Origin: Nemertoderma westbladi
Taxonomy: Eukaryota; Animalia; Xenacoelomorpha
Assembly (NCBI GenBank): GCA_032718475.1
Contig: JAUCBJ010000538.1
Location: 1-56,026, forward strand
Length of the DNA: 56,026 nt
Direction: 5' to 3'
The notes under the pieces are model-generated. The model was not told where the DNA came from. It searched no databases and worked only from the letters and a program-made list of their open reading frames with translations. Positions 1 to 45,739 of this stretch are shown piece after piece (position 1 is the first letter of the stretch; each line of letters starts with the position of its first letter). A program made the translations under genes and the position numbers.

Positions 1-199
1 GTGTGGGAGATTTGAGAACTGCATACGGAACAGACACCATCATTAAATAAAACACCACCCCCATAAGAGATAACTGTCAAGTTTCAACTTTAGGCAGATT
101 GTAAATAACAAAATTTCCAGAAAATGATCACTTTCAGATCCACCCTCTACCTGCGGACTGGTGAAATGCAGACGGCGCTGCAGTTTGGTAAAGATTGGG

Positions 200-2890: not shown

Positions 2891-2927
<37 letters not shown>

Positions 2928-2948
2928 TCGAGATTTATATATATTAGA

Positions 2949-6775: not shown

Positions 6776-8165
6776 ATGTCCCAGGAGCAACTTACGCGTG
6801 AATTGGACTATAGAAAATTCACCGCTCGCTATACGCATCATAATGGTATGTATATGGACTTCTTAACTACTAGTCATTCTATCGATTTACACGATACGGA
6901 CGATGTCGACACCGAAAGGGAAATGGTTTTATTTAAATATCATACCCAGCGGAAGCGGAACGATAAACTGAGACTCGAACACGAAAATTCTATTCGAAAC
7001 CGACTCGAAAGTGAAGATGTTGAAGAGCCGGATAAACGCAGCGACTTCAACAAATATCTGGAATTCTTGAGAGAAACATATCTCAATATTACCAGTTACC
7101 ATTACAGAATCTAGAAACTCGATATCCTCAAGGTATACATCATGACCGCATGGTGGAACTCAAGCGGCTCTGTTCCACTATGATGTATCTTACCGCCGAT
7201 CGACCGCTACCTGTTGTACCGGATGGCTTCGAGCAGATGGGGGAGTGTTGTGAACTGGAGAGAGATCACTCACGTTTCCCCTACAAGACGTGCGTCTTTG
7301 GTATTATTGCGATGGTGCCCTTGACCCAACCAACAAACGGAAAGACCTAAACATCCGCGGAGACGTTGCACTAAACACGGTTTTACTCGCTATACTTACG
7401 GGTGTTTTGAGCGAAATTTGTTTGACGTATCACCTACGCTCGTTCGACTCAGACGATCCTTAAATAAACCAATGATCAGAGTTCTGGAATACTCGATCAG
7501 ACCTCCTCATTCCCTAGTGAGACCTCAGACTCTTGATCCTATTAGTATGACGGATCCTCCCGAACTGTACTCACTGTTCAAAGATCTAGTGTTACCTGAA
7601 CAGTTAGTCGGTGGCACCCCGGTTGTGGTCTTCCTAGATATTAGCCCATCCTACCTAGCCAGATTGGGATGCGGACATTTAATGTCGCCGTTTGACCCTT
7701 GCCATCGTCCCGTTTAAACACCGATACAACCTGTCACCAGAGTGGAGGAGAGCGTTGTGCCAAGCGCGTTAGACGCTATTCTACAAAAGATCAGAAAAGG
7801 AACCTACGCTTGTTCAGATAAACGTAAATTGCACTAGCAGGTCCAAGCGGTAAACAAAGTAACTTTATCTCAGTTCGATCGGGAAATCCAGAATCTCTAA
7901 GAAGTTATCGAACTTGGACGACCCTATTCTCCGCGAGAATTTTTGGATGGACACATCCAACGACAAGCGGAGGAAAATCAGCTCGAAGAGAAGCATATCG
8001 AAATGGACGAGACACCGACTGTAACCCTAACCTTCTGATGCAATTGTATTGCACCCTTCGCCCAGGAGTTATAGCTCTCCTAGTAAAGTGGCTCGCCCCA
8101 AAGAGAAAAGGACTCTCGCTAGCCTCAAAAAACTGCGTAAACGCCGTCCGCGCGGGAGAGACTGA
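6776..8165 (+). pseudogene. Decayed extra 3' ORF region of the BEL/Pao family, copy 1 (unknown product)
   Basis: ORF pieces 6776-7114, 7150-7350 and 7418-7717 match pieces at 36775-38156; frameshifts and stops are present. Confidence 0.55.
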
Positions 8166-8243
8166 CTGTTTAGAGTATTTTTATATTTTAGAAACTGTGA
8201 TTTTTTATATTTTATAGAATTAAATCCCATTTTCTGGGAGCGG

Positions 8244-9401
8244 TGTAAAAGCTTTTGCGGGATGTAACTGGCCCTTTTTCTCCGCAATCCAGTTTTCCCT
8301 CAATGCGCTCAAATACTCTAAAACTGCCTTGCTCGAGTGATGCATTCTGCTGGCTGATTGGCCGATTTGCTGTACGTATGGCCTCTTTGTTCTGTTCGAT
8401 TAACCAATCAGAACAATGATCGACCAATCAGAGCGATTTAGCCTTGTGTTGGCTATGGGCTGCAAAGGCTAGGGAGGTTTGGCATTTAGACGTTCGTGGA
8501 AACTATAGAATCTGGAGTTCTGCCAATGAGAGCTATTTCTCTTTGTGTTGAAAGCTGCCTACAATGGCCCACAGGTTTCAGTGTGTTGGTTTTCCTGATG
8601 CCATGAACATCGGCTATGGAATTATTCTGTTTCAGACTTTAGCCAAAACATTAGAACGGCTTTGATTACCGGAACGTATAACTGTTATCCTGCCTGTCAA
8701 CTGCATTATATACACACCGCATTATTTTACTGCTATTTACTGTCGGTTATTAATTGTATCTGTTGATGGAATATCGTTATATTTGGATAATATCAATAAA
8801 TAATTATAAAACCCCATCTTCTTGATATACTGAAGGTAAGAGACCGGTTACATATAGCAATTGCGACTTATATGATATTGGTTTTGGAGTGAATCTAATG
8901 CTATTTCATAGGCACTACATGGGTCAATTGCTATTCTCTTTATATGTGACTAAAATTAGTAAAGGTCGGCAGATCAGTGTGCAGTATTGTGCGGTACCGG
9001 TAGTGTGCATGATTGGGACAGATAACAAAGCATCTCCTAAAGAATGCGCCTTATACGTGAATCATAAGCCATCCCGTTGTGTTTAGTGTAAGTCATAGCT
9101 CTGTTTATATATTTAGAGCGCCACGTCCTAAAGGAACTGTTAATATTTCCCGAAAGTGAATAATATTGTCAGAAATTATATATTAACGATCAATCGAATA
9201 ATACAGTAGGCCTACACCGCAATAAGGTCAGAGCCCCCGAATCCATTCTCCCGGGTATATCCAGCGGGTGAATGATCGCGCATAGGCTGGCTTCGGCTAA
9301 TGTAGTGTATCAAATACTCGTCGTAGGCTAAAGTCGATATACAAACTAAAAGACACCTAAAATTAGCGGGTTAAACTGCTAAAGGTCTAAAAGCGCGAAC
9401 A
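8244..9401 (+). repeat. 3' LTR (subfamily 1, 1158 bp)
   Basis: TGTAAAAGC...GCGCGAACA. The 3' half is similar to the other LTRs and the 5' part is divergent. Confidence 0.92.
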
Positions 9402-10713: not shown

Positions 10714-12414
10714 TGTGGGGCGAGCCACGAAGTTGGCGGAGCCTTAGCGAATTGACACTGTTAGGGGGTGGGTCAATTTATGCAAATAGTTGCCACGAAG
10801 TTGGCGGAGCCTTAGCGAATTGACACTGTTAGGGGGTTGGTCAATTTATGCAAATAGTTGTCGTCGTCGTCGTCGTCGTTGTCGTCGTCGTCGTCGTCGT
10901 CGTTGTCGTCGTCGTCGTCGTCGTCGTTACGATTTTGACATGCTAATAACTTTGTCGGATTTAAAGCTGCCAAGTTGAAAATTTGTAGGTATCAATATGA
11001 GCAAAGGTTGATATTTTTGAGAGACTTTCAGACACCATCAGTGCAATGGTCTCCCGCTAGAGGGCCACATGTCTAAACATTAAATGCCCTCCCATTTCTT
11101 TGCTTTTAATCCGTTTAAGCTGAAACTTCGCAGATATGTATTAGACCATTAGCTGTGACTTTCAAAGGAGGCGAATCCATCTGCAGTTCTCCAGTCTGCC
11201 GCTAGAGGGCCAAAGGTCTGAAAGTGAAATCGTTGTCGTCGTTACGATTTTGACATGCTAATAACTTTGTCGGATTTAAAGCTGCCAAGTTGAAAATTTG
11301 TAGGTATCAATATGAGCAAAAGTTGAGATTTTTGAGAGACTTTCAGACACCATCAGTGCAATGGTCTCCCGCTAGAGGGCCACATGTCTAAACATTAAAT
11401 GCCCTCCCATTTCTTTGCTTTTAATCCGTTTAAGCTGAAACTTGGCAGATATGTATTAGACCATTAGCTGTGACTTTCAAAGGAGGCGAATCCATCTGCA
11501 GTTCTCCAGTCTGCCGCTAGAGGGCCAAAGGTCTGAAAGTGAAATCGTTGTCGTCGTTACGATTTTGACATGCTAATAACTTTGTCGGATTTAAAGCCTC
11601 CAAGTTGAAAATTTGTAGGTATCAATATGAGCTAAAGTTGAGATTTTTGAGAGACTTTCAGACACCATCAGTGCAATGGTCTCCCGCTAGAGGGCCACAT
11701 GTCTAAACATTAAATGCCCTCCCATTTCTTTGCTTTTAATCCGTTTAAGCTGAAACTTGGCAGATATGTATTAGACCATTAGCTGTGACTTTCAAAGGAG
11801 GCGAATCCATCTGCAGTTCTCCAGTCTGCCGCTAGAGGGCCAAATGTCTGAAAGTGAAATCGTTGTCGTCGTTATGATATTGACATGCTTATAACTTTGA
11901 GGAATTTAAAGCTGCCAAGTTGAAAATTTGTTTTGTTGAAAATCAGTTCAACAGTCACCCGCTATAGGACTACTTTATGCCTGAAAGTGAATAGATTCTC
12001 CCGTCTCATTGATTTTAATCAGTTTAAGCTGAATCTTGCCATATATTCTGGACCACATGCTGCGTCTTTGTGGGGGGGGGGGGGGGGGGGGGAGATTTAA
12101 TCGGCCTGCCGCTATACGACGAAATTTCTGAAAGTGAGATCCGTCTCTCATTTCGTTATCCGTTATTCAAGAGGAAACTTGGCCGATGTACGTATGTACT
12201 ATTCATCCATAGGCTGTGTCTTTGTGGGGCTGGAGACCCTAATCCATCTTCAGTTCTCACTATACCGCTAGAGTCAGAAATGTCTGAATAGAAATGAAAG
12301 AGGTAAAAAGTGATTAGGCGAAATCTGCTTAAAATTTGCTAATACAGTAATACTTTCGAATTAGTACTTAAATTAAATTTAAGTCACGTGCTGCGCGAAG
12401 GCCCCACTTCGTGT
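10714..12414 (+). mobile_element. Non-autonomous Crypton-V-like or Helentron(HINE)-like element
   Basis: Ends TGTGGGGCGAGCCACGAAG and CGTGCTGCGCGAAGGCCCCAC are shared with other copies in the window. Contains (GTC)n at 10858-10929 and a 315-bp repeat (10926, 11241, 11556, 11871). The superfamily is inferred. Confidence 0.65.
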
Positions 12415-17654: not shown

Positions 17655-18889
17655 TGTAAAAGCCTTTGCTGAATTGCCCCGTTATTTTTATTATCTTTTA
17701 CATTAAAATACTCTGTAGTTGATTTAATAAGTGTAAGAGACCGTATTATTGCTGTATCGGTGTTTTTAGAGGATCTAAGACCTATTTCCTCCGTATGTGT
17801 ACTGTGAAAGGCATATTTTATGATTCTATGGCAATTCGTGACGCAAAGGGGTGATAGCTACTCTTGAACAGTAGTTACTATGACTACGGTTAACAGCTGA
17901 CATTCATACGTGTTGATTTCCTTTGTTCTACGGCGTCTCTCAGTTCAGTCAGCCAATTAGAGCGTTTTTGTGGCTCCTTGTACAGAAAATTTCCGAGAAA
18001 TGACGCAATGCCTATGTGCAGTGTTTACATTCAGTCCTGAGCCAAAGAAAGAACGGCTTGGAAGTATTTTGTGCTTTACTGTTTTAGCCGTACACTAGTA
18101 GGCTTAATCATAAGGACATATATCCGTTATCTAACTTGACTAACCTAGCTCAATGCAATCAATGCATACTGCAGTACTGCATACACTGCATACTGTGTAA
18201 CACTGTGCATACTTTATATTGTTATACTGCTATTTGCTGTCTGTACTTCATAATTTGGTTGATGAATTATTATATTTGGAATAACGATAAATAACCCCGA
18301 AAACCCAATATTCTTGATATACTGAAGGTAAGAGAGAAAGGTTATACATAACGATTGTGACTTATGTTAAAGTGGTTTGAAGTGAATCTAATGTTATTTG
18401 ATAGCCCCTACATGAGTCAGTCTGTGTTCCTTTTATATGTAACTAAAATCAGTGAAGATCGGCAGATCAGTGTGCAGTATTGTGCAGCATTGTGTGCGGG
18501 TGATACTGATAACGAAGCATTTCCTAAAGAATGTGCCATATATGTGAATTATAATTAAGCCATATCGTTGTGAGTAGTTTAAGTCATAACTCTGTTTATA
18601 TAAATAAAGCGCCACGTCCTAAAGGAACTGTTGATATTCCCGAAGGTGAATAATATTGTCAGAGATTATATAATACTGTCAGTCGAATAATACATTAAGC
18701 TTACATAGCAATAAAATTAAGCCGTCGAACCCAATCTCCCGGGAATTATCCAGCGGGTGAATGATCGCGCACAGATTGGTTTCGACTAGTGTAGTGAATC
18801 AAATATTTGTCATCGGCTAAAGTGATTTATTATCTAACAGACATCCTAATTTGGCGGGTTAAACTGCCAAAGGTCTGAAAGCGCGAACA
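17655..18889 (+). mobile_element. Solo LTR of the BEL/Pao family (subfamily 2, 1235 bp)
   Basis: TGTAAAAGC...GCGCGAACA flanked by 5-bp TSD ACATG. The empty site (single ACATG) is at 22179-22183 in the duplicate. Confidence 0.95.
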
Positions 18890-26498: not shown

Positions 26499-27171
26499 CC
26501 CATACTGTTTTTAAACGGTACCACTGCCTGGACTTATCGGTAAGGCATAGAGGCATTAATATTACCTACAGTACGTTGGTATAGAGGCCCATGTGAAGTA
26601 TACCAGACTTTCTGCTGTTATATTTCACTTTGCAGATACCCCCCATGGGAAGGATACCAGGTTTTCATTAAATTGATCCATATTCATTCATTTTTGGATG
26701 CTACTATAAAATATAATTATTTTTATTTTCAAATGGATTAACACAATTATTTTAGATAAGGAAAATACTAATTGGCCACAAACTAACTCCGTAGTAATCT
26801 CACCATAATATAAATCAGTTTGCATTAATTATCATTAGCTATTAATATTGCCTAATTTGATTTGGCCTATTTTGGAACATATTATTAAATAATGACCTTC
26901 ACATTCGTGGCACCTACTGTACTACATTTCCATCAGATTTAAGTATGAGGCATAATGCCGATATCCCCATCCACAAGAAGATTTATGAAGGCCTACCGTA
27001 TTTATTTATTATACTAAATTAATGTTCTGTCCTAGTCCCTGTATGCTGCACCTGAAGGCTGCTCTAGTTTAGAAAACCTTTGAACTGAAAGAAAATTGTA
27101 CAATAATTCGATAAAATAATGGGGTGCCAACAGTATTACAGTATACTTACAGGTAGATTGATAGATTGCAG

Positions 27172-28344
27172 TGTAAAAGCTTTTGCGTAATTAGCCGGTT
27201 ATTTTCCCTGTAAAGTACTCTGTAGTTGGTTTACTGGGCATAAAAAGGCCGTGTCCTTACTGTACTGGTGTTTTAGAGGACATAAAAGCCTTTCTTCTGT
27301 ATTTGTACTTTAGAGGACATAATCCGCAATTTCGGGACGCAATAAGCTCGATACTCTTGAAAACAGTGTCGCTACCATGACGACGGCTAACAGCTGATAT
27401 TGCCACGTCGACATTTCTTTGTTTCTTTGTTCTCTCGTTGTTCGGTCGACCAATCAGAGCGTTTTTTGTCTCTGTGTTGGAGGTGGATACAGAAACTCAG
27501 GAATTCAGTGTTATGTTTTTGCCCAGAGCCTAAGAACACCGGCTTTTGGCACCTCCGTGTTTCAGTCTTTAGTCTTACATTAGTAGGCTTAATTATAGAA
27601 CGTATATCTGTTATCTAACCTAACCATACCAATGCAAACGAGCTACTTACTTACTCAACAAACTTAATTATATCTTATTAACTTTACTGCTTTTACTGTC
27701 TGTTATTCATTATATTTGTTGATGGAAGATTATATCGGAATACTGATCAATAGTCAGATACCCCACCTTCTTGATATACTAAAGGTTAGAGAGACCGGTT
27801 ACAGATAAACGATTGCGACCTATGTTAAGTGGTTTGAAGTGAATCTAATGCTATTTCATATGCCCAACATAAATCGTCTGTTGCTCTCTTTATACGTGAC
27901 CAAATTTAGTGAATGTCGGCAGATTAGTGTGCAGTATTGTGCAGCATTGTGTATGAGTGTAACTGATAACAAAGCATCTCCTAAAGAATGCGCCATATAC
28001 GTGAATCTATAGCCTTTTCGTTGTGTCTAGTTTAAGCCATAACTCTGTTTACATATTTAGAGCGCCACGTCCTAAAGGAACTGTTAATATTTCCCGAAAG
28101 TGAATAATATTTGTCAGAGATTATATATTACGATCAGTCGAATAATACAGTAGGCTTACACCATCAATCATTAAGCTCCGAACTCAGTCTCCCGGGTATA
28201 TCCAACGGGTGAATGATTGCGCATAGACTGGCTTCGGCTAATGTAGTGTATCAAATACTCGTCATAGGCTAAAGACTATCTATCATCCAAAAGACATTCT
28301 AATTTTGGCAGGTTAAACTGTCAAAGGTCTTAAAAGCGCAAACA
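27172..28344 (+). repeat. 5' LTR (1173 bp, subfamily 3)
   Basis: Matches 38235-39408; four differences seen by eye. Confidence 0.97.
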
Positions 28345-28355
28345 ATAACAGATAT
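28345..28355 (+). promoter_or_regulatory. Putative self-complementary primer-binding site (Tf1-type)
   Basis: ATAACAGATAT abuts the LTR end and is the exact reverse complement of ATATCTGTTAT at 27604-27614. No TGG-type tRNA PBS is present. Confidence 0.7.
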
Positions 28356-28639
28356 TGCTTCTGGATTGCGGTGTAAGCAATCTAGTCGAAAGTACCGGTC
28401 GAACGGTAACCTGTACTGCTGTAACCAGTAGGCCTGACTGCCTGATCACCCGAACCGGTACTTACAGTACAGGTACAGCAGTATTATTCGATTTTGATAA
28501 TTATATACCGGTAGGCCTTAATAATTAATCAGGGACTGCAGCCCTGGTTTTTTATTGAGATTTTACTTATTTCTGTCAAGTTTTATTTGTTTGTAGGCCA
28601 GTATTGAGCAGAAGGCGTGTAAGCCTGCTCAGATTGTAC

Positions 28640-29210
28640 AGATAATTTGTAGGCTTGACTGTTGGCTAACTGTTGATTAGGTCTGAACGGATTGCAGTGC
28701 ATGTAGAGTGTATGTCCGATAAAGAACAGTTAGGAAGTAGGGGCAGCCATAGCTGTAAGGTAAACCCCATCTAAAGAATAAGTCGTACTACTGGGTTAGA
28801 ACGCATACTACTTAACCATTTCGGAGTCTGCATGTCCTGTGGTTTATTTAGGCCTGATAGGAGTCCGCCAGCGTTTGGTCTGTACTTTTTTTGTGTAGTC
28901 TGTACGGGTAGCGTATAATTTTATTTAGATAATTTGTAGGCTGGATAGTTGTCTGGCTGCTGTTGGGTTTGAGGAAATTTCGGTGTGTGTAAAGCATCTG
29001 TCTGATAAAGAACGGTTAGGAAGTAGGGGCAGCCATAGCTGTAAGGTAAACCCCCATCTAAAGAATAAGTCGTACTACTGGGTTAGAACGCATACTACTT
29101 AACCATTTCGGAGTCTGCATATACCGTAGTTTGTTTAGGCTTGATAGTAGTCTGTCAGTATTTGGTTTGCATTTTGTTTGAGTAGTTTGTACACGTAGCG
29201 TAATATTTAT
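28640..29210 (+). repeat. ~287-bp direct duplication in the 5' leader
   Basis: GATAAAGAAC...GGAGTCTGCAT at ~28718 and ~29004. Confidence 0.9.
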
Positions 29211-30543
29211 TATTCAGAGTTTATGCGATTATTCGCAACATTCATTCCCCAAGTTTGTTCCTACAGTAATTGTGTTTGTTATACATACCGTTATAGTTAA
29301 ACTAACCCCGGTACTACATCAGGGCTGCTCGGCGTAGGTAAAGACTGGAGATTTTGTGCTTTGGTCACTCCGGCAGATACCGTGGTTCTTTTAGCTGTTC
29401 AAGTATTTTAACTACTAATTATTTGTTGTACAAGTACTTGTACCTAATTTAGGGTTTAGTGTACAGTGCTTTCCGAAAGCAATTAGTGTGTAGGCAGTAT
29501 ATTTGTGTTGTAAAGTGGTTAATAGGCACGTTGGTTCTGGTAGACCTCGGTAATTAACTTCTAGGTAGGGACACTCCGTGATACATAACGTAGTACCTAT
29601 AGCGATACGGTTATAGGTCGTCAGGCGGTGGTATTTTCCTATCTGGACAACGCAGTATATTTACTACTACTTATTATTTTCAAATACCGTAGTAACCTGT
29701 CCGTTGTAATAACCAGATATTCTAACCCTTTGTTAGGCTGGTTAGTAGACTTCTTGTAAAATTACCCTAAAAATTCGTATTTGTGTATTTGTAATTAAAT
29801 TTTTGTGTTTATTTAGAGATTGTAATCTCAACCCGAATTGTACGTAATTTGTAGTATTAAGTAACTTAGGTAAATCAGAATTATTTGTTTTAGTGTCCAA
29901 CAAGTAGCACTCCACTGAGAGCGCACAGCTTCTGTGTAGTGACTCCCCCCAGAAATAATAACATTTATTTCAAACATTGACAAAACCCATTAAACGGGTA
30001 TATATATATTATAAATCAACTCAAACGATTTATAAATAGTAGGCCTGCCATATAACAATTAGGTCTCAATATCAGTTGGACTACTGCTCGAATGACAGTA
30101 ATAAAGTAAGTAAAGTAACCAAGTAACCCTTAAAAATTCAGAAATTCAATTATTTAAAATAATTGACATACCGGTATTTACGATAGGCCTATTATCTTTA
30201 TTTCTATAAATTTAGGCTGAAATCATACCGGTACTCTGCAATTAATTCTAGTCCAGAATTATACTTATATATACTATAAGTAGGCTGTATACCGGTATTC
30301 ACGATAGGCCTATTATATATTTATATATTTGTGCTAAATTTATACCGGTATTCTGTAACAAACCTAGTCTGTAATAATACTTATATATATACTATAAACA
30401 TACCGGTATTCTAATATATTATATATATCACGCTACACTGAGTAGCAGTATCGGTAATTAATTGTTAGGCTAACAGTGATACTGAATTACTAGACTTGCT
30501 TTAACTGTAATATAGCAGTAGGCATTCAACTATACAATCAAAC

Positions 30544-33500
30544 ATGGCTGACACAAGGCAAACTCTGTCAGATAGTCTCCTAGAAACAACAGCCTGTTTC
30601 TCAGATCAAAGTGTAGAGAATCCCAGACCGAGGTCTGAAACCCCTCATACTGTAAGAAGGGTGACCCCTGCAGTGGTTGTGTCAGAACCTAGGTTGGTAG
30701 AAGCGATTTCGCAATTTGCGAAGTTAGTGAAGCGCCGTTGGTCTGCCATAGGCACTCGGGCCCAAGTCAAGCGGGATCAAGAAGCAGCTGTCAAACAGCA
30801 GCAACATCCTAGCCAAGAACCTAGTTTTCAGCGGCCCGATAGCTCCAGTAGTTCGGATACTGATGAGCGGACGCCCGAATGCGGAGCGAAGATGGTGGAT
30901 AAGGTTTATGATGAGCGGCCAACCTATGAAGAATCAACCGACGCCACTTTTTCTCAAGAAGAAAGCGAAGTGACAGCAGAGAAACCGCATAAGAGGGATG
31001 CTATTGACATCTATCTGTCAGACTATCAACGCTTTGTAGGAGATGAAGAGTTGAGGAGAAGGTTGGAGGGGCTTAGCCCTAATAGTGAAGGAACCAAGCT
31101 TGTGCTGGACGCAATCGATGCGGAAATGTTAGCTGCGAACCAAGCTAAATTTGATGAACTCCTCCGCATCATTAGAGTCCAAGAAGAGCAAGTAAAGAAA
31201 AAACTTATAGAAGACAGAAAGAAAATAGCAGCAGCAGTGGCAGCTGCAGAAGCAGAAAGAAAAGCAGCCGAAATGGAAAGAAAAGCGGCAATGGCAGCGG
31301 CCGAAGCGGAAAGAAAAATAGCAGTGGCAGAAGCAGAACGGAGGGCATCTGAAGAGACAACCCAACTAGAGTTGGAAAATCTTCAAGAGAGGCAAGACAA
31401 CTTCAATAAACAGTTAACAGCTAGTAATATGCAGAGGATGAGTCGATCTACTCCCAAAAGACAGGGGTATACATCATCTGAGGAAGGCGATACTACCGAT
31501 CCTGAAGGCGGAGGAAATCGATCTCGCCTAAGCAGACGTAAAAGAATGTCCCACCGTCAGAAATTGCCTGAATTGCCTCCAGCTGTTCGAAGGCAACTAA
31601 ATAACACCAACTTAGGTAGTACAGAACCCACAGACCAAATAATTACAATAGAGAGACTCCCTACTATAGTAGATGAGCCTGAAATAATTAGGCCTATTCC
31701 CGAAGCCACCCTTTCGGTCGTAGAGACACCTGTACTCCCTGAACCTACCTCTCAATTCCCTTTGCACAGCACTAAGCTACCTGTGCCTAGAGGAACAGCC
31801 CTTGAAACAGTGTCGGTCCTGGACTCCGAGCGAAATATAAAGGATATATCGCCCGTAGTCCCTCGTCTGCCCGCTACGACGTTGGCGGATCCCGCTTCGG
31901 CGGTTGATTGGGTGGACGAGAGACGGCGGGGGATGGACATTCTCCTCGGAAAGATGGATGAGAATCGAATGAGCTCCTCCCAACAGGTCCGAGAGCTAGA
32001 AGGGACTGTTCAACAGTTAAAGGGAACCGTAAAGGAAAGTAGGTTAGAGTTGCAAGAAGTGCAGCAAAATATCGCGCTAGAACGTGATAAATTAGTAAAT
32101 TTACAAAAGGGTATACTACCACCCCCTGTAACAATGTGTCAACCTGTTAGGTCTGAAGTATCTCATGCGCAAGGTGTGGAGCCTACACGCATCTATACTG
32201 CTAGCGAAGTAGAAACTCCTATAGTGAACCCTATTAAGAGTAATTATAGACCTATTGATAATGATATTCCCTATAGACCGGATCATAATCCGAGAAATTT
32301 ATATACCGATAACTCGATATTAAATAACACGATGGCCCAAGAAAGTTTTACGCGTCAAATGGCTAGAACCGAAGCCCGGCAAGCGGTAAAGGTGGGAGAG
32401 ATCGTCAAGTTCAATGGAGATGAGATGAAATGGTTACCTTTTAATGAATATTACAAAGATAACATACAGAACTCTGTGCTATCTAATGGAGAGAAACTTA
32501 GATTCCTCATCAAGTGCTTGGAAGGATCTCCCAAGTTAATGGCGTTAAAGTTTATTGGACATCCAGACGGATTAAGACAAGTTTGGGATACACTAAACAT
32601 CAGGTATGGTAATAGGAATAATATAGCTGGGTATTTGTATGCAAAGTTAGTAGCGCCCCGAAAGTTTATGAGCAGCGGGATTATAGAGTTTTCCGATGAG
32701 ATTCAGGAGATCTGCAGACAATTAGATTGGCTAGGTAAGTATCATGAGTATCAGAGTGCTATGCTTATTAGAGCAGTGGCTTCTACTTTACCGAAGGGTG
32801 GAGTAGGTACACGCTGGGATAAGAAAGTGTTATATATGATGGAACAACAACGACGAGACCCTACCATGGCTGATCTTATGTCATTCTTAGATGGAGAAGT
32901 GAAATTACAGCTCCTAAGGCAGTCCAGAGAGAAGACACTGGAAAACAAGGTAAGTGAGAAACCCGTTTCTAGGAGAAGGGTAACACCAGTGTGTTATACA
33001 GACGATGGCGAAAGCCAGACTTCTCAAGGAGAGGACAGCGGAAAAGACACTGAAAGATCTTATTATGGCAATAAAGCGCCTATAGAACAGGTAAGTAAAT
33101 TCAAGTCTCGACCCAATGACAGAAGAGAACTGGTAAGAAAAACCCCTCCTACGTCTCCCAAGAGAATTCATGTAAGAAAGCCCGAGGAAAGAACAAGTGT
33201 GCACCACACAGCACAGGTTAAAGTAAGTAACATCAAACCCAAATGTGTGCTGTGCGACGGGCCCCACCGCTTGAATATGTGCGATGAATTCTTAAAGAAA
33301 TCATTAAAAGAGAGACGGGAAGTCATGTGGGATAAGCGGTTGTGTTATAATTGCCTCAGACGAGGACACCAACGGCGAACCTGTTACTTCGACGCAAGGT
33401 GTGCAAAGTGCGGTGCAAAACATCATATCTTGTTGCACACTGAATTCGAACGAAGCAGCCCGAGTCAGGTAAGTGAGTCCGAACAACTACATGTCCAATT

Positions 33501-34989
33501 CAGTGATGTGAACGACACTGACCAAAGTTCTGAGATGGAAGGATTCTATACGGACGAATTCTCCGACCAAAACGAATCCTGTTACTTAATAAACACCACC
33601 GCAGTGTATCGAGCACTCATGTATGAGAAAGACACAGACAGCGACCTCACCCTAACTACTTCAGATCAACAACAATCTTGGAAAGCGCAAACTTCAAATG
33701 TAGGAATCCGAGAATTTCCTGTAGTCCAGTTACGGGTCCACGGACCTCAGAAGAGCTATATAGTGAACGCCCTCCTGGACTCCGGCAGCACAGGAACATT
33801 CATCGATAAAGAACTAGCCGAAGACATCTTTGCTGGACAACCCAAGTTCCGAACCAAGCTGAACATGTCAGGGATCATGCAGGTTTGGAAATCTGCTGTG
33901 GCTGCCGACTATTATATAGGTGAGTTGTCCACTCCACAGGATAAACTAGGAGAACACAGTATAAGGTCAGTCAAAATGGTGGCAATAAAGAACTTCGCTA
34001 CCACCCAAGTGGAACCTTATAATTGGGACGAAGATGATCATGCCCAACGACTTAACATTCCTAGATTCGACACCGATTATCCTGGAGTACAAATATTAAT
34101 CGGTCAAAACGCGCATGAGGCGCTGGAGACATTGGAGAAACGACCTGCTCAACCGCAACCACTTCAGACCTATGCGGTAAGAACTAGAGTAGGTTGGTAC
34201 CTTACTGGACCTTCCCGAAGAACGCTCAGAGAAAGACTGCTTCAAGATCGCGTCTTCCAGGTGAGTGAATGGGAAGATGATACTAGTGAGGGAGACGACC
34301 CAACTGAGGGAACACCATACTCCTCAGATAATGACGATATTAGCTCCAATGTAGATCAATGGAGATATTGCCCCAAGAAGTTTAATCCAACTGACATCGC
34401 TTCCAGAGGAGCAACTCCTCAAGAACTGACAGATACTACAGACCGGTTAGGTGAACCCGACTTCCTGAGTAAGGAGGATGAATGGCCTCCCCATCTTACT
34501 CCGACTGAGATTAGACCAGCCAAGGGAGCGGAGAAAGTCAAACCTAAAACCCGGACGGGTGGATCGGAGTTATTTGAACCCGGGATAGATCTGTCGGTAT
34601 TACATATTGCCAGGGACGACGCCGTGGATCTGGACCTCCCCACCGCGAGTGGATCCTTCATGAAGATCAGAGAGAGCGATCGGAGCTCTGGAACATCAGA
34701 CGTCTCGCAGGGACTCTCACCTCTCCTGCAGGGAGCGACGGACCACTATAGCTCCTGGAATCGGCTTTGTAAGGCCGTCGTGTACCTAGAGCGATGTTTC
34801 TATCGTCACTATTCCAGGACGAAGAGGAAACCTGGAATTGTATTCGGGATGCAGCGACTCAATCACCCAGTCGGTCGTTTGTGTTTACCGGAAGGGAATG
34901 GAGGACTCTCCGGAAACTGTGGAAGGCAAGATTCTCTTCCCACGACCACCTCCCTAATCCTTCAAACATCTAGGGACTCCATAACGTAA
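30544..34989 (+). CDS. BEL/Pao Gag-aspartic protease polyprotein with RNase H C-terminal remnant (1481 aa)
   Basis: Gag core FNGD..KW..F...LSNGEKL.FL..CLEG...RYGN; three knuckles CVLCDGPHRLNMC, CYNCLRRGHQRRTC and CAKCGAKHHILLH; protease ALLDSGS, ILIG and RTRVGW; then QWRYCP..FNPTDIASRG. No YVDD-type RT motif and no DDE integrase. Confidence 0.93.
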   Translation: MADTRQTLSDSLLETTACFSDQSVENPRPRSETPHTVRRVTPAVVVSEPRLVEAISQFAKLVKRRWSAIGTRAQVKRDQEAAVKQQQHPSQEPSFQRPDSSSSSDTDERTPECGAKMVDKVYDERPTYEESTDATFSQEESEVTAEKPHKRDAIDIYLSDYQRFVGDEELRRRLEGLSPNSEGTKLVLDAIDAEMLAANQAKFDELLRIIRVQEEQVKKKLIEDRKKIAAAVAAAEAERKAAEMERKAAMAAAEAERKIAVAEAERRASEETTQLELENLQERQDNFNKQLTASNMQRMSRSTPKRQGYTSSEEGDTTDPEGGGNRSRLSRRKRMSHRQKLPELPPAVRRQLNNTNLGSTEPTDQIITIERLPTIVDEPEIIRPIPEATLSVVETPVLPEPTSQFPLHSTKLPVPRGTALETVSVLDSERNIKDISPVVPRLPATTLADPASAVDWVDERRRGMDILLGKMDENRMSSSQQVRELEGTVQQLKGTVKESRLELQEVQQNIALERDKLVNLQKGILPPPVTMCQPVRSEVSHAQGVEPTRIYTASEVETPIVNPIKSNYRPIDNDIPYRPDHNPRNLYTDNSILNNTMAQESFTRQMARTEARQAVKVGEIVKFNGDEMKWLPFNEYYKDNIQNSVLSNGEKLRFLIKCLEGSPKLMALKFIGHPDGLRQVWDTLNIRYGNRNNIAGYLYAKLVAPRKFMSSGIIEFSDEIQEICRQLDWLGKYHEYQSAMLIRAVASTLPKGGVGTRWDKKVLYMMEQQRRDPTMADLMSFLDGEVKLQLLRQSREKTLENKVSEKPVSRRRVTPVCYTDDGESQTSQGEDSGKDTERSYYGNKAPIEQVSKFKSRPNDRRELVRKTPPTSPKRIHVRKPEERTSVHHTAQVKVSNIKPKCVLCDGPHRLNMCDEFLKKSLKERREVMWDKRLCYNCLRRGHQRRTCYFDARCAKCGAKHHILLHTEFERSSPSQVSESEQLHVQFSDVNDTDQSSEMEGFYTDEFSDQNESCYLINTTAVYRALMYEKDTDSDLTLTTSDQQQSWKAQTSNVGIREFPVVQLRVHGPQKSYIVNALLDSGSTGTFIDKELAEDIFAGQPKFRTKLNMSGIMQVWKSAVAADYYIGELSTPQDKLGEHSIRSVKMVAIKNFATTQVEPYNWDEDDHAQRLNIPRFDTDYPGVQILIGQNAHEALETLEKRPAQPQPLQTYAVRTRVGWYLTGPSRRTLRERLLQDRVFQVSEWEDDTSEGDDPTEGTPYSSDNDDISSNVDQWRYCPKKFNPTDIASRGATPQELTDTTDRLGEPDFLSKEDEWPPHLTPTEIRPAKGAEKVKPKTRTGGSELFEPGIDLSVLHIARDDAVDLDLPTASGSFMKIRESDRSSGTSDVSQGLSPLLQGATDHYSSWNRLCKAVVYLERCFYRHYSRTKRKPGIVFGMQRLNHPVGRLCLPEGNGGLSGNCGRQDSLPTTTSLILQTSRDSIT

Positions 34990-36774
34990 CAACATATGGA
35001 GTGGGTGTGTGACTCTATTATTTTGTATTTGTTTTATTTTTATATTTATGTATGTATTATTATGTAATTTTATTTTAATCGTTTTATTTAATTTTATTTA
35101 GTAGTATGGTATTTTAGAGATTATTTAGTAGATTAGTGCAATATATTAGTGTTTATTACGTACGTAATTACTTATAATATATTTAGTGCGACGGCGAGAA
35201 ATAATTATTTTTTCTCTTTCCTTACTGTCCGTATCATATTATAAATACGTGACTACAGTAAGATGAAATATCCGTACTTATTAAAGTACAATAAAGCCAC
35301 TGCTATATTTAAGTATTATTGGTAGGCAGAGTATTAGGAATGCAAAGTTCAGATCCTCGTGTCTCGGCTAAACCAAGCTCTGGGTAGACCTTGGAAACGA
35401 CTTGCCTCTTCACACTGACATTGCTTCGTGCGATATTGCTCTCATACCGTATATTAAATAATACATATAGTAGCGTGATGTCCCTCTAACAGTGGCATGA
35501 AACGCAAATAAATCTGTTAAACCTTTTGACCATCTGTAATTCTAGTCGATTAAGATATCGCGGCACCCACCGATATACTTGAAAGACAAATTCTAGAATC
35601 AGTGGTTAACGTCCCCAGACAAGTTCTGGAATAAATCGGTGCCCATCCTAAATATTAATTATTAATATTTACAAAAATCTGTCAAATATCAGATCCTTTA
35701 AAATTCTAGTCGATTAAGATATCGTAGCACTTACCGATACTCTTAAAAGGACAAAATTCCTAGAATCAAGGATCCCAGTCCCCAGACACGTTCTGGAATA
35801 AAATTGTGTCTATTTAACATTAAATAATAAAATTTACGGGAATAAATTTAAATTCAGATATTTCAATGAATTTAATAAATTGTCATTTTGTACAATTTAT
35901 AACATTCCCAAAATTCCATTAATTAATAGATCATGGGAGCGGAGATTCACTCTATTAAGTGTATTTGTGTGCGAGAATCTCCAATGTATAGTCAATAGCT
36001 GATAAAATTCATAGAATCATGTATAAAGGGGATATTGACCATTAAAGACTTACTATTAAATAGCATCCCAGATCTGTATGCATGAGAATTACCCTAATTC
36101 TACCGCTAGCTTTCCATAATGTCACCATGGCAACAACCACGCTAGAATTAGAAGTGAGTTAAAAGAACAATAGAAGGCATGCCCCATTGAATAGCATAGG
36201 GAATAAATAGCGCACTGCTAGTATCCAAGGATACATAATAAATACAGTGACATTCTGGAAGGTACTTGACTAACGGACAAATGACCCGAATGTGTGATAG
36301 AATGTGTACCATTTGTGACTGTTACGTGGAATTTGTGCGTTTGTAGGTGAATGTTACTACTAAGGTGTGTTTACAGTAGCGAGTCGCAATTGTGAAAGTA
36401 ACCCTAACTCTCCAGTAAGAACCTGAAGTATATCTAAGCCTTTGGGACGGACGGTGGAGTGACTTGTGCTGGTTGTTGTAGTCGTTGTGCAGCTACGACG
36501 TTGGCGATAGGCACATCGGCGAAAGTACACCAGCGCTGAGGATCTCGCACTGTCAGGGGGCAGAGAGGGGTAGGCAGCGACGCCCGCTCGCCTAAATATA
36601 AACTCATTATAATATGGATAAACTTATATAGCAGATATGATTGAGTTGATAGAAGATGATCTTGGTATCAGGGAACGATATACTCTAACTTTACAAGCGT
36701 TTGTTGATAGCTTGATACGCGGCGACGCTGGTCCCACTACTACGGAGGACGATGGTCGTTATAACTAACCGCCA

Positions 36775-38156
36775 ATGTCCCGGGAGCAACTTGCGCGTGG
36801 GTTAGACTGTAGAAAATTCACCGCTCGCTATACGCATCGTAATGGTATGTATATGGACTTCTTAACTACTGGTCATCCTATCGACCTACACGATACGAAC
36901 GATATAGACACCAAAGGGAAATGGTTTATTTAAATATCATACCCAGCGGAAGCGGAACGATAAACTGAGACTCGAACACGAAAATTCTATTCGAAACCGA
37001 CTCGAAAGTGCAGATGTCGAAGACCCGGATAAATGCAGCGACTCCACCAAATACCTGGAATTCTTGAGAGAAACCTATCTCGATATTACCATTCAACAGA
37101 ATCTAGAAACTCGATATCCTCAAGGTATACATCATGACTGCATGGTAGAACTCAAACGGCTCTATTCCACTATGATGTATCTTACCGCCGATCGATCGCT
37201 ACCTGTTGTACCGGATAGCTTCGAACGGATGGAGGAATATTGTAAGCTGGAGAAAGATCACTCGCGTTTCCCCTACAAGACGTGCGTTTTTGGTATTATT
37301 GCGATGAATGCCCAAGACCCAACCAACAAACGGAAAGACATAAACATCCGTGGAGACGTTGCTTTAAACACGGTTTTACTCGCTATACTTACGGGAGTTT
37401 CGAGCGAAACTTGTTCGATGTATCACCTACGCTCATTCGACTCAGACGATCCTTAAATAAACCAATGATCAGAGTTTCGGAATACTCGATCAGAACTCCT
37501 CATTCCCTAGTGAGACTTCAGACTCTTGATCCTATTAGTATGACGGATCCTCCCGAGCTGTACTCACTGCTCAAAGATCTAGTGTTACCTGAACAATTAG
37601 TCGGTGGCACCCTAGTTGTGGGCTTCCTAGATATTAGCCCATTCTACCTAGCCGGATTGGGACGCGGACATTTAATATCGCCGTTTAACCCTTACCATCG
37701 TCCCGGCTTAACACGATATAACCTGTCACCAAAGTGGCGGAGAGCGTTGTACCAAACGAGTTAAACGCTATTCTACAAAGATCAGAAAGGAAACCTGCGT
37801 TTGTTCAGATAAACGTAAGTTGTAACAGCAAGTCCAAGCGATAAACGAATTGTCTTTATCTCAGTTCGATTGTGAAATCCAGAATCTCTAAGAAGATATC
37901 GAACTTAGACAACCCCATTCTCTGCGAGAGTTTTGGATGGACGTATCCAGCTACGAGCGGAGGAAAATCAGCTCGAGGAGAAGCATATCGAAACGGCGGA
38001 TACCCCGACCATAATCCTACACCTTCTGATGCAATCATATTGCACCCTTCACCCAGGATTTATAGCCCTCCTAGTAAAGTGGCTCGCCCCAAAGAGAAAA
38101 GGACTCTTGCTAGCCTCAAAAAACTGCGTAAACGCCGTCTGCGTAAGAAAGACTAA
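36775..38156 (+). pseudogene. Decayed extra 3' ORF region, copy 2 (env position, unknown product)
   Basis: ATG in CCGCCAATGT at 36775; ORF pieces 37064-37456, 37282-37764 and 37872-38156 parallel copy 1. Confidence 0.55.
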
Positions 38157-38226
38157 CTGTTTAGAGTATCTTTATATTTTAGAAACTGTGATTTGTTATA
38201 TTTTATAGACTTAAATCCCATTTTCT

Positions 38227-38234
38227 GGGAGCGG
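38227..38234 (+). promoter_or_regulatory. Polypurine-tract position
   Basis: GGGAGCGG directly precedes both 3' LTRs (also 8236-8243). Confidence 0.65.
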
Positions 38235-39408
38235 TGTAAAAGCTTTTGCGTAATTAGCCGGTTATTTTCCCCGTAAAGTACTCTGTAGTTGGTTTACTGG
38301 GCATAAAAAGGCCGTGTCCTTACTGTACTGGTGTTTTAGAGGACATAAAAGCCATTTCTTCTGTATTTGTACTTTAGAGGACATAATCCGCAATTTCGGG
38401 ACGCAATAAGCTCGATACTCTTGAAAACAGTGTCGCTACCATGACGACGGCTAACAGCTGATATTGCCACGTCGACATTTCTTTGTTTCTTTGTTCTCTC
38501 GTTGTTCGGTCGACCAATCAGAGCGTTTTTTGTCTCTGTGTTGGAGGTGGATACAGAAACTCAGGAATTCAGTGTTATGTTTTTGCCCAGAGCCTAAGAA
38601 CACCGGCTTTTGGCACCTCCGTGTTTCAGTCTTTAGTCTTACATTAGTAGGCTTAATTATAGAACGTATATCTGTTATCTAACCTAACCATACCAATGCA
38701 AACGAGCTACTTACTTAGTCAACAAACTTAATTATATCTTATTAACTTTACTGCTTTTACTGTCTGTTATTCATTATATTTGTTGATGGAAGATTATATC
38801 GGAATACTGATCAATAGTCAGATACCCCACCTTCTTGATATACTAAAGGTTAGAGAGACCGGTTACAGATAAACGATTGCGACCTATGTTAAGTGGTTTG
38901 AAGTGAATCTAATGCTATTTCATATGCCCAACATAAATCGTCTGTTGCTCTCTTTATACGTGACCAAATTTAGTGAATGTCGGCAGATTAGTGTGCAGTA
39001 TTGTGCAGCATTGTGTATGAGTGTAACTGATAACAAAGCATCTCCTAAAGAATGCGCCATATACGTGAATCTATAGCCTTTTCGTTGTGTCTAGTTTAAG
39101 CCATAACTCTGTTTACATATTTAGAGCGCCACGTCCTAAAGGAACTGTTACTATTTCCCGAAAGTGAATAATATTTGTCAGAGATTATATATTACGATCA
39201 GTCGAATAATACAGTAGGCTTACACCATCAATCATTAAGCTCCGAACTCAGTCTCCCGGGTATATCCAACGGGTGAATGATTGCGCATAGACTGGCTTCG
39301 GCTAATGTAGTGTATCAAATACTCGTCATAGGCTAAAGACTATCTATCATCCAAAAGACATTCTAATTTTGGCAGGTTAAACTGTCAAAGGTCTTAAAAG
39401 CGCAAACA
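38235..39408 (+). repeat. 3' LTR (1174 bp)
   Basis: Direct repeat of 27172-28344, followed by TSD TGCAG. Confidence 0.97.
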
Positions 39409-40238
39409 TGCAGTAATATGTGTTACAGTATTAAAAGCATTGAATTTGTCCCATCATAAAATTTATGTTTATTCTAATATCAAAGCTACATAAATCTTCG
39501 ATAATAAATTATCCCGGTTTGTACTGTGTGTAGTTATTTGTAATGCCCTAAAAACTGTCATATCATTTTATCAAAAATAATCCCAGCCATGGCCTGGGAG
39601 TAATGACGTTTATTCTCCTCTGTGCGGTACTGTACGTCATGTAGGCCTAAGCTTATACAGTAGGCCTAAGTGCCTATGATTACAAAATATGGGGGATTGA
39701 ATGAATATGGGGACGGGGGGAGGGGGGGGGGGGGGGGGGGGGTGGGTTGAAAGGGGACAGGAGGGATCTGACCCCAGTTGCAGGCCCTGCAATGTGTATA
39801 GACAGACAGGTCCAGTACGTGCTAAAAACCGGACTCCCCTATACTCATACTCAGCTATATTCATCTAATACTCAGCTATACTCTCACATATACCAAGATA
39901 TACTCAGCTAATAAATCATAGATTCACCTATACACAGCTATATACAGTTAGTCCCGTAGTAGGATGTCCAGAATGAGCTACTGTACATACCGTATTACGC
40001 TACTGTAGTAGACAATGAGCTATAAATCATAAAATTACCCGAGAGGGCAGATGGTGGTTCGGTTGACAAATTAATGGTTCTGGGCCAGACAGACCAGACC
40101 ACAATTGGACCGGACCAATGTCCATAAGATGGCCAAAGTACTGTACTGTAGGGTTGAGCGCAGTGGCAGCATATGATGGTAATGACAGATGGGAGGCCAC
40201 GATGAGTAGCAGTAGTCAATAGAGTATTCCACCATAAG

Positions 40239-40382: not shown

Positions 40383-40839
40383 ACAATAAAATTAAGCGTT
40401 TGTCATGTGTTAACTAATGCTTAGTGCTGCCCTTACTAATTTTGTCAGTAAATTTGTAAGCACTGTAAAATAAAATATCTGACAATCCTGAAATCATCAG
40501 TTTGACAGTTAGAAGAAATGCGTACGTACATAAAAAGTCATTCAGCGGACAACAAAAGTTATTATGGTAAATTCGTAAATATATGCAGACAAAAAGTCAG
40601 AACAACGAACATGCAAAAATCGCTGCTCTTAAAAACGGCAGAATCCAGCAATTGCATATTAGTCAGATATGGACATTGGCCATTGTATTTTCCTTTACGT
40701 CCCTATTCAACTGTAGTCTGTCTGGCCCAGAACCAGTCTTGTCAACCGAACGACAATCTGCCCACAATTGCCATTGTATGAAGTTTTTATACTTTAGCTC
40801 ATTGTCTAATATTTGTACCTCATTCTAGGTCATAACTGT

Positions 40840-41757
40840 ATAGCTGTGTATAGATGAGTATAGGTGAATCTATGTTTTATTAGCTGAGTATAGCTGAGTA
40901 TATGGGAGTATAGCTGAGTATAGGGGAGTATAGCTCATTATTAGGTGAGTAGGCCTATAGCTGAGTATAGGTGAATCCATATTGTATTAGCTGAGTATAG
41001 GTGAATCTGTATTGTTTAGCTGAGTATAGGTGAGAATAGCTGAGTATTAGGTGAGTATAGCTGAGTATAGGTGAGAATAGCTGAGTATAGGTGAGTATAG
41101 CTGAGTATAGGTGAGTATAGCTGAGTATAGGTGAGTATAGGTGAATCTATGATTTATTAACTGTGTATAGGTGAATCTGTATTGTATTAGCTGAGTATAG
41201 CTGAGTATTAGGTGAGTATAGCTGAGTATAGGTGAGTATTAGGTGTGTATAGCTGAGTATAGGTGAGTATAGCTGAGTATAGGTGAGAATAGCTGAGTAT
41301 TAGGTGAGTATAGCTGAGTATAGGTGAGAATAGCTGAGTATAGGTGAGTATAGCTGAGTATAGGTGAGTATAGCTGAGTATAGGTGAGTATAGGTGAATC
41401 TATGATTTATTAACTGTGTATAGGTGAATCTGTATTGTATTAGCTGAGTATAGCTGAGTATTAGGTGAGTATAGCTGAGTATAGGTGAGTATTAGGTGTG
41501 TATAGCTGAGTATAGGTGAGTATAGCTGAGTACAGCTGAGTATAGGTGAATCTATGATTTATTAACTGTGTATAGGTGAATCTGTATTGTATTAGCTGAG
41601 TATAGCTGAGTATTATGTGAGTATAGCTGAGTATTAGGTGAGTATAGCTGAGTATAGGTGAGTATTAGGTGAGTATAGCTGAGTATAGGTGAGTATAGCT
41701 GAGTATTAGGTGAGTATAGCTGAGTATTAGGTAAGTATAGCTGAGTAAAGGTGAGTC
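40840..41757. repeat. 10-bp-unit satellite (TATAGCTGAG/TATAGGTGAG) with higher-order repetition
   Basis: Read directly; a short inverted copy lies at 39835-39950. Confidence 0.95.
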
Positions 41758-42492: not shown

Positions 42493-43059
42493 TCAATTCT
42501 GTTCCACGGAAACCCCTGTTTCTCCTCCACTGTCGGTCTTCGATTCCTCCTCCTCCCCAGCGAGTATAAAGTGAGTAATCCGCTCCCACAGTCGCTGCCA
42601 TGAGTCCTCCACTGCGGGGGGCAGTCTCCCTCCGTTCGACTGCTCCACCAGCCAGATAACCGCCTCGCCCAGGTTAACCAGGTGTTCAGTGTCTATGTTG
42701 TGCCGGTAATGAGTTCGCCCGATAAATTTGGATAATTCCACAAATAACTCTGGGTCGTCTAGCCCATCAACCAACGAGTTCAACGTGTTCATCACGCGGA
42801 TTACGTGAGCCCGTAGCATCTTAGATTCACGGAGTTCATCGTCCGATAGTTTTAGGAACTTAGTGAAGTAGGGCCGAGCTGCTGGGTCCAGAGTGAAGAA
42901 TTTAAGGAAGAGTTTAATCCCGCCTTGCTGGAGTCCATCGTCGATCACCAACATCCACGAGTCAACGAGTGCGTTCTTCTCGGAAGGCGTAAGTTTAGTG
43001 AGTTCGTCCGGAATGTCTGGGACGGAGTTCCACAGCAGGCCACTCAGGTAACCTCCCAT
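42493..43059 (-). CDS. Globin (188 aa), intronless CDS, predicted N-myristoylated
   Basis: W35 (A12), F51 (B10), P59 (C2), F65 (CD1), H85 (E7) and H117 (F8); N-terminus MGGYLS fits MGxxxS; candidate AATAAA at 42240-42245 (-). Confidence 0.93.
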   Translation of the reverse strand: MGGYLSGLLWNSVPDIPDELTKLTPSEKNALVDSWMLVIDDGLQQGGIKLFLKFFTLDPAARPYFTKFLKLSDDELRESKMLRAHVIRVMNTLNSLVDGLDDPELFVELSKFIGRTHYRHNIDTEHLVNLGEAVIWLVEQSNGGRLPPAVEDSWQRLWERITHFILAGEEEESKTDSGGETGVSVEQN

Positions 43060-43266
43060 GATCTAATGTTGTAATGACTGGTCTGCTGGTACGGTACAGC
43101 AAGTCAGCACCATTGGTGGGTAGAAAGCTTGAAAGCTATGCCTATTACCTACAGCTGTACTGCTATAGACAGAGAGGACAACATCAGGACTGCCGACAGC
43201 ACACTGCTGGAGCTGGACTGTTAAATCAATAAAATTATGAAAAATGTTAAGGGTAAATCTTTTCGA

Positions 43267-45354: not shown

Positions 45355-45419
45355 TTATTAAATTCGTACTGTACGTTTGTGATTGTGAGAGTGGTGGTGT
45401 AAATTAACGAGACTTGAAA

Positions 45420-45630
45420 ATTATCGAGAGTAAAAATATTGAGAGTATAAACATCGAGAGTAAAATTATCGAGAGTAAAAATATTTAGAGTATAAACATC
45501 GAGAGTAAAATTATCGAGAGTAAAAATATCGAGAGTAAAAATATCGAGAGTAAAAATATCGAGAGTAAAAATATAGAGAGTAAAAATATCGAGAGTAAAA
45601 ATATCGAGTGTAAAAATATCAAGAGTAAAA
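45420..45630. repeat. ~15-bp minisatellite GAGAGTAAAAATATC (~14 copies)
   Basis: Read directly. Confidence 0.95.
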
Positions 45631-45739
45631 TGTGGTTTAAAAATTAGTTTGATAAAATTTAGTTTTGACCAATCCTCCTAAATTTTGGTTCTACAAAAAA
45701 TTTTAATAGGGAAAAGTTGAAAGTCGAAAAATAACTATT

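Follow-up and report, generated by a model that had tools for sequence, protein, structure and literature searches.

An LTR retrotransposon derived from BEL/Pao, one of the three big LTR-retrotransposon superfamilies, probably primes its reverse transcription with an 11-nt stretch of its own RNA and not with a tRNA. The element lies in the window, by which we mean the whole stretch of 56,026 nt that was analysed, and the 11 bases that directly follow its 5' LTR are the exact complement of a segment inside that LTR. The mechanism itself is known, and it would be new in this superfamily, for which no report of self-priming appeared among the full-text matches listed (an earlier remark in subscription papers, Repbase or GyDB is possible); at the level of sequence and modelled structure it is well supported. 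The earlier note on this DNA had read the element as a case of self-priming in a new superfamily. That reading holds, with the correction that BEL/Pao would be the third such superfamily, after Ty3/gypsy and, by prediction, plant Copia, and not the second.

Self-priming has been shown for Tf1 and proposed for Tj1 and the Tf1/sushi group (PMC4600332, PMC10085805, PMC3601003, PMC2864245). According to the accessible parts of these and related papers, the first 11 bases of Tf1 RNA anneal to its primer binding site (PBS), the RNase H cut falling between bases 11 and 12 (PMC7175516), and the process needs, besides the central primer:PBS duplex, two duplexes between PBS-adjacent sequence and U5 (PMC10085805). 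A published criterion, as worded in the excerpted source, asks for at least 10 nt of complementarity within 0-5 nt of the LTR, and the same excerpt predicts self-priming for the plant Copia TAR lineage, Houba and Osr-1 (PMC6317226). For the Belpaoviridae, the ICTV profile gives priming by host tRNA-Arg or tRNA-Gly at an 18-nt PBS and describes replication as poorly understood; tRNA priming of BEL/Pao is assumed there, not shown (PMC8742986). PBS, tRNA and priming go unmentioned, by term, in the accessible portions of the main texts of four BEL/Pao surveys (PMC554778, PMC3118150, PMC8556966, PMC6238403).

Identity and age of the element

The element (Table 1) is, judging from its sequence, a young and recent insertion of a non-autonomous BEL/Pao derivative that needs the reverse transcriptase (RT) of a helper. 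Its two LTRs share 1170 identities and differ at four places (three mismatches and one indel), and the target site duplication (TSD) and the LTR pair agree on the 5' LTR end at 28344 from which the earlier note had started. The long internal ORF matches DUF1759 in a Pfam scan (E=6.6e-11) and carries three Cys-His knuckles and the protease motif LLDSGS. When the BEL polyprotein P0002 was compared with the window by tblastn, residues 408-651 matched and the alignment then jumped to residues 1217-1261, so that the element lacks RT and most of RNase H; nor did this comparison give an integrase match in it. What remains, the protease and a C-terminal remnant of RNase H, stands in BEL order, and all four homologues found are BEL/Pao polyproteins with the Pao-type PF05380 and DUF5641.

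Table 1. Features of the element and of related LTRs in the window (positions are those of the window).
Feature	Position	Strand	Remarks
LTR, subfamily B	8244-9401	+	3' LTR of a copy truncated at its 5' end; U5 arm from 9210; primer segment at 8678-8688
Solo LTR, subfamily C	17655-18889	+	TSD ACATG; primer segment 18120-18130; U5 arm from 18699
5' TSD	27167-27171	+	TGCAG; identical 5 nt at 39409-39413
Complete element	27172-39408	+	LTR pair and TSD TGCAG; sole complete copy in the window
5' LTR, subfamily A	27172-28344	+	TG..CA, 1173 nt
CCAAT box island	27450-27460	+	likely promoter element; ~150 nt upstream of the candidate primer
Candidate self-primer	27604-27614	+	predicted first 11 nt of the RNA; exact complement of 28345-28355
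U5 arm of outer pretzel stem	28154-28176	+	predicted pairing with the leader just 3' of the PBS
5' arm of U5-IR-like stem	28215-28222	+	predicted; pairs with 28336-28343
U5 terminal hairpin	28303-28326	+	predicted; LTR B has A-U for G-C; LTRs B and C show wobble changes
3' arm of U5-IR-like stem	28336-28343	+	predicted; at the LTR end
PBS adjoining the LTR	28345-28355	+	not TGG-type; unpaired between two stems in the local fold
Leader arm of outer pretzel stem	28357-28378	+	predicted
BEL/Pao gag-protease ORF	30511-34989	+	1492 codons stop to stop; ends in a short RNase H C-terminal remnant
T-run and short purine-rich tract	38221-38234	+	adjoins the 3' LTR; likely polypurine tract (PPT); same stretch precedes LTR B
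3' LTR	38235-39408	+	1174 nt; primer segment again at 38668-38678
3' TSD	39409-39413	+	TGCAG

With its DUF1759 capsid region, three knuckles, protease and RNase H remnant in BEL order, its LTR length (1173 and 1174 nt, within 0.2-1.2 kb), the purine tract before the 3' LTR and its host, which the element type and a cytoglobin-like globin ORF in the vicinity indicate to be an animal, the element resembles the Belpaoviridae as described by the ICTV, and it differs from them in having no 18-nt PBS for tRNA-Arg or tRNA-Gly and in the deletion of RT, most of RNase H and integrase (PMC8742986). We file it as a BEL/Pao-derived non-autonomous element on account of protein homology, and it departs from the ICTV description of the PBS. 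Close protein relatives are absent from the best 150 of 11502 matches, which are mostly 24-37% identical (two reach 46-49%, over one short knuckle stretch only), and an autonomous partner or helper is likewise absent among the best of these matches, all of them distant. The Gag-protease has 0 loci in viral contigs and 0 matches in the PDB, and the exact pattern of LTR end and PBS has 0 matches in metagenome contigs.

The LTRs and leader might instead stem from a Tf1/sushi-type Ty3/gypsy element that captured a BEL gag-protease or hosts one as a nested insertion. The copy lacks an RT by which it could be classified, its Gag-protease forms a long, unplaced branch in a tree of 18 rows that is uninformative on placement, and the offset of 0 and length of 11 nt of the match are those of Tf1. 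However, no inner LTR pair surrounds the BEL ORF, the internal ORFs scanned against Pfam gave no gypsy or chromodomain match (those other than gag-protease had no Pfam match), and the same kind of site is present in intact, RT-bearing BEL/Pao elements. We consider such an origin highly improbable; the element would work like Tf1 and, to go by its BEL-type Gag-protease, is not a member of Tf1/sushi.

Two parts of the internal region deserve mention in their own right. The 2.2-kb leader contains two diverged copies of a 290-nt unit (28640-29218), and a coding-like region before the 3' LTR, at 36700-38200 and again at 6700-8217, is common to subfamilies A and B; it breaks at different places in the two, has no Pfam match and is possibly an accessory gene.

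The 11-nt match and the start of the RNA

The observation at the centre of the earlier note, that 28345-28355 is the perfect reverse complement of 27604-27614 with pairing that ends at exactly 11, proved correct. The 11-mer of the primer segment occurs once per LTR, the 12th base does not pair, and the match is thus 11/11 at offset 0, where a Tf1-type site has at least 10 nt of complement at the LTR border. The partners lie 730 nt apart and would form an A-U rich helix of -10.5 kcal/mol. Homologous segments are indeed present in the diverged LTRs B and C, as had been claimed, and form a conserved island there, since 9 of the 11 positions are identical in LTRs A, B and C against 23/50 upstream and 5/50 downstream.

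The earlier estimate for a chance match, about 3e-4, was too low: dinucleotide shuffles of the LTR gave a match of at least 11 nt at offset 0 in 9/5000 cases and at offsets 0-5 in 23/5000. A coincidence in an AT-rich LTR would therefore occur in 0.2-0.5% of elements, and many elements were inspected. Such an explanation is nonetheless largely refuted, and we find it barely credible in view of the second matched pair of primer and PBS, the flanking stems, the four of four predicted changes, the conservation island and the recurrence of such sites in other BEL/Pao families.

Nor does a TGG-type tRNA PBS follow the LTR, in agreement with the earlier note; the first TGG stands 17 nt away, at 28362, which is likewise at odds with the 18-nt site for tRNA-Arg or tRNA-Gly of the ICTV description. 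The window holds no tRNA gene, and an Rfam search over 27172-30600 found no family beyond one chance-level match. Priming could also come from a fragment of a host tRNA, such as the half-tRNAs with an end in the anticodon loop that certain Copia elements use. In its 3' part the segment is similar to the anticodon loop of tRNA-Asn(GTT), of which presumably only some 6 nt would pair, the first base of the PBS excluded, and this counts against a tRNA. Half-tRNA priming does exist in Copia, as described in excerpts of two papers (PMC6317226, PMC5445492), and the ICTV lists tRNA priming for the family (PMC8742986). A PBS set by a tRNA, however, would leave unexplained both the perfect complement in the LTR and the fact that the eighth PBS letter follows the LTR letter, and common variants at 28363 and 28364 disrupt the TGG at 28362, so that we regard this explanation as very unlikely.

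Other sources of a primer were tried and rejected. Splicing could not build one here, given that the junctions of 130 donors x 68 acceptors yield no more than 10 Watson-Crick pairs, and the single junction that reaches 11 nt, by means of a G-U pair, uses an acceptor that is absent from LTRs B and C. Priming from an RNA 3' end at the copy of the segment in the 3' LTR was discarded because neither AATAAA nor ATTAAA occurs anywhere in LTR A.

The hints as to where the RNA starts are indirect. The lack of a clear TATA box 25-30 nt upstream of 27604, conceded in the earlier note, was borne out over 25-31 nt both here and in five relatives with a self-complementary site, and TATA was accordingly dropped as support for the start site. 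An Inr-like TCAGTC at 27562 is confined to LTR A; CCAAT is retained in LTRs A, B and C within otherwise diverged sequence, and a pyrimidine-purine step occurs at the predicted +1 in all three. Identity across the LTRs amounts to 165/432 upstream of the primer and 478/645 downstream of it, and this change from low to high conservation is the pattern expected of U3 versus R-U5.

In the mechanism that we propose, RNA polymerase II would start at or slightly upstream of 27604 from a TATA-less promoter, the two U5 stems (28215-28222 with 28336-28343 and 28154-28176 with 28357-28378) would keep the PBS accessible, and the RNA would pair into it with its 5' end to give a pseudoknot, the 'pretzel'. 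A helper element would supply the RT, whose RNase H would then cut between 27614 and 27615 and which would extend from 27614 over 28344 back to 27615 (~730 nt) before jumping to the 3' LTR. Plus-strand synthesis, begun at the purine tract, would copy the primer and in this way renew the PBS, a coupling that would account for the joint changes of the two sites. Taken jointly, start site, cut and extension are likely, and they make predictions that are precise to the base: a cap at 27604, a cut at 27614/27615 and the three stems named.

Predicted fold and paired changes

Folding from 27604 predicts an inner stem of 28217-28222 with 28336-28341 (P about 0.91-0.95) and, given enough leader, an outer stem of 14 bp between 28154-28169 and 28364-28378 (P 0.96-0.98), to which four weaker pairs are added that reach 28357. 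In the local fold the whole PBS is unpaired between these two flanking stems. Because the primer:PBS helix is crossed by the outer stem, the three helices together form a pseudoknot, which lies beyond the nested folds of ViennaRNA. In those folds the primer:PBS pairs have a P of 0.39-0.58 when the fold stops at 28400 and of at most 0.01 in three longer folds, in which the primer pairs with 27965-27971 instead (7 bp, P 0.97).

The 25 nt after the PBS are predicted to bind the LTR at -24.7 kcal/mol, a value equalled by 12/300 LTR shuffles, and the outer stem taken alone is therefore modest in strength; among other 25-mers of the leader, 0/80 bind the LTR as well. The best duplex site for this arm lies at the homologous place in LTR B as well, and not so in LTR C. 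For the inner stem, the pair 28218:28340 is U-A in LTR A and C-G in LTRs B and C, i.e., a compensatory change. The two U5 duplexes that flank the PBS in the pretzel of Tf1 thus have predicted counterparts here, and both these stems and the open PBS between them are modelled features accompanied by covariation.

We also considered that the pairing is a real, selected RNA structure that serves packaging, a dimer/translation switch or site protection, the primer being something else. All of the evidence concerns base pairing, and a competing helix is available to the primer segment at 27965-27971. Set against this, the helix ends on the first base after the CA of the LTR, exactly where minus-strand synthesis must start, no alternative primer site was seen, and both the length and the three-stem layout match Tf1. 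A purely structural role is thus unlikely, and priming by the segment remains our preferred reading.

A separate observation concerns the leader arm, of which 28359-28378 resembles the purine tract and LTR start at 38223-38243. By virtue of this resemblance, the genomic RNA could offer the U5 arm at 28154-28162 a further pairing partner at its 3' end.

Self-priming would predict that PBS and LTR segment covary between subfamilies, as the earlier note had proposed. Public sequencing contigs over 28140-28480 were drawn from runs X1-X4, which are four of the seven runs listed and represent at most three samples and at most three studies; one of them may be the window's own source. Coverage of the PBS amounts to between one third and one half of the depth summed over the last LTR bin, a measure that gives no copy number and nevertheless implies that this PBS is common in the family. 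Within 28345-28378 the contigs list eight variants. For perfect pairing, LTR B predicts changes at 28352, 28363, 28364 and 28376, and all four are listed in X1, X2, X3 and X4 (4/4 among 8 variants; hypergeometric P 4e-5 under a uniform null that ignores transition bias, with an outer-stem register that was set once the data were known). LTR C predicts five changes, three of which are listed, the absent ones being 28350 A>G in the PBS and 28370 G>T. The leader-arm variants at 28363, 28364, 28371 and 28376 fit LTR B or C, and those at 28353, 28370 and 28372 (3/8) fit none of LTRs A, B and C.

The PBS variant 28352 A>T occurs in all four runs (6, 3, 5 and 1 contigs). It is linked to a B/C-type LTR end in loose contig ends from X2 (12 contigs) and X4 (1), and one X4 contig carries 28352, 28363, 28364 and 28376 together. 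A PBS with 28352 A>T matches LTR B over 11/11 positions, after which pairing stops. The predicted covariation is accordingly borne out for the first subfamily, whose PBS is found in the contigs, and not for the second, whose PBS (28350 A>G) is absent from them. No X1-X4 contig spans both sites, and none has primer and PBS variants on one molecule. With the pretzel stems, the compensatory changes and the predicted PBS of the first subfamily, the self-priming reading of the earlier note has gained evidence.

Other BEL/Pao families and known systems

A scan of metagenome contigs yielded 312 BEL relatives, the best 80 of which were kept. Among these, 35 have a long-range direct repeat, and nine loci, corresponding to seven families, have a fixed 5' LTR end. 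Five of the seven families have a self-complementary site of 10-12 nt (two contiguous and three across a GT-AG intron), in a sample that is biased to relatives of four query proteins and gives no family-wide rate. The contiguous LTR matches are 12 nt long and lie at offset 2 (L041) and offset 5 (L039), with 0/1000 shuffles as good in each case. For L015 (12 nt), L073 (11 nt) and L029 (10 nt) the match exists only once a GT-AG intron, whose splice sites are plausible, is removed (0/100 shuffles each). L044 has 8 nt, likewise across a GT-AG intron, and L051 has a TGG/tRNA-type site and no LTR match.

The intron, 77-100 nt in length, lies inside the LTR in L015, L029 (=L030), L073 (=L071, L072) and L044, and three of these four splice-form families have intact polyprotein ORFs. 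Pao-type domains were found in 6/6 families scanned with Pfam (all seven but L044). The six self-site or fixed-end families other than L041, which is absent from the tree, are spread over a quick version of the RT tree comprising 55/78 loci with an RT match of at least 330 columns. Ten further loci without a fixed LTR end, for which 9-35 ends were tried each, were left out of the five of seven; five of them have a candidate of 11-13 nt, one has 9 nt and four have none.

The earlier note had taken self-priming for a convergent or acquired property of this element. Instead the signature is spread over distant BEL/Pao families, which suggests that self-priming characterises a broad part of BEL/Pao. 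On balance we lean towards self-priming as the usual, possibly ancestral, mode in a large animal branch of BEL/Pao, with two forms, one ready-made with a pretzel and one assembled by splicing; tRNA priming would then be only partial, and RT-RNase H would cut an RNA:RNA duplex. The element in the window is of the ready-made form, as no junction beats its contiguous match.

The relatives differ in the spacing of their sites. Where the PBS adjoins the 5' LTR, the purine tract adjoins the 3' LTR (28345 and 38234 in the window, and the candidate L011), and where the PBS is 2-5 nt off the LTR, the tract is 2-3 nt off (L015, L029, L041, L073 and L039), with L001 as an exception; this link may reflect whether integrase trims the cDNA ends. 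The 12-nt LTR match of L039 runs straight into a short tandem repeat, right behind which lies a 5-nt match to the first PBS bases, and the repeat may have split the primer.

The PBS next to the 5' LTR is complementary to a stretch of the LTR in the element as in Tf1 and Tf2 of S. pombe, Tj1, Tosmo1-3 and the Tf1/sushi group. Tf1 is also matched in the length of 11 nt and, by prediction, in the central duplex and two U5 stems. The element differs from Tf1 in its primer-PBS spacing of 730 nt and its 1.17-kb LTR, and from Tf1/sushi in a BEL/Pao-type Gag and protease without a chromodomain match. That the primer sits at the RNA 5' end and is cut by RNase H has been shown for Tf1 and is inferred here. 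Going by the title of one Tf1 paper, the self-primer is reportedly not removed.

Plant Copia TAR elements (Houba, Osr-1) and Tcn1 chromoviruses are comparable in that self-priming is predicted for them from complementarity alone, by a criterion that also takes in the 11-nt match at offset 0; they belong to other superfamilies and hosts, and the excerpted source contains no structure or covariation analysis of them (PMC6317226). The hairpin of the fungal GalEa Copia elements, as far as the accessible part of the paper describes it, likewise replaces a tRNA PBS with a conserved structure at the PBS position, but its partner lies downstream in the leader, with no LTR complement found, whereas here the partner is in the LTR (PMC5445492).

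If the reading is true, each of the three superfamilies has members that prime without a tRNA, and this matters for the question whether self-priming or tRNA priming came first and how often RT RNase H gained the ability to cut RNA:RNA. Such elements would escape silencing by 3' tRNA fragments and would be overlooked by annotation tools that require a tRNA PBS.

The neighbourhood of the element is rich in repeats. The internal part of the LTR-B copy, at 5184-8243, is 92% like 35173-38234. Duplicated segments (15464-17658/20010-22187 and 19005-19997/22470-23453) are 98-99% alike, and the solo LTR C sits in one of the duplicate copies, the other being a near-identical empty site. Tandem arrays occupy 1-5179, 10915-11931, 40828-41756, 45372-45671, 47119-48533 and 55286-56026, with units of 146, 315, 10, 15, 52 and 17 nt, respectively; on the opposite strand, the 315-nt unit resembles the 146-nt unit at ~65%. 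Within 49107-54632 lie several ORFs (129-444 codons) that have no Pfam match, the longest at 50304-51638 (-). An uninterrupted globin ORF of 189 codons is located at 42496-43062 (-), and its best PDB matches are cytoglobin (E 3.5e-17) and nerve haemoglobin.
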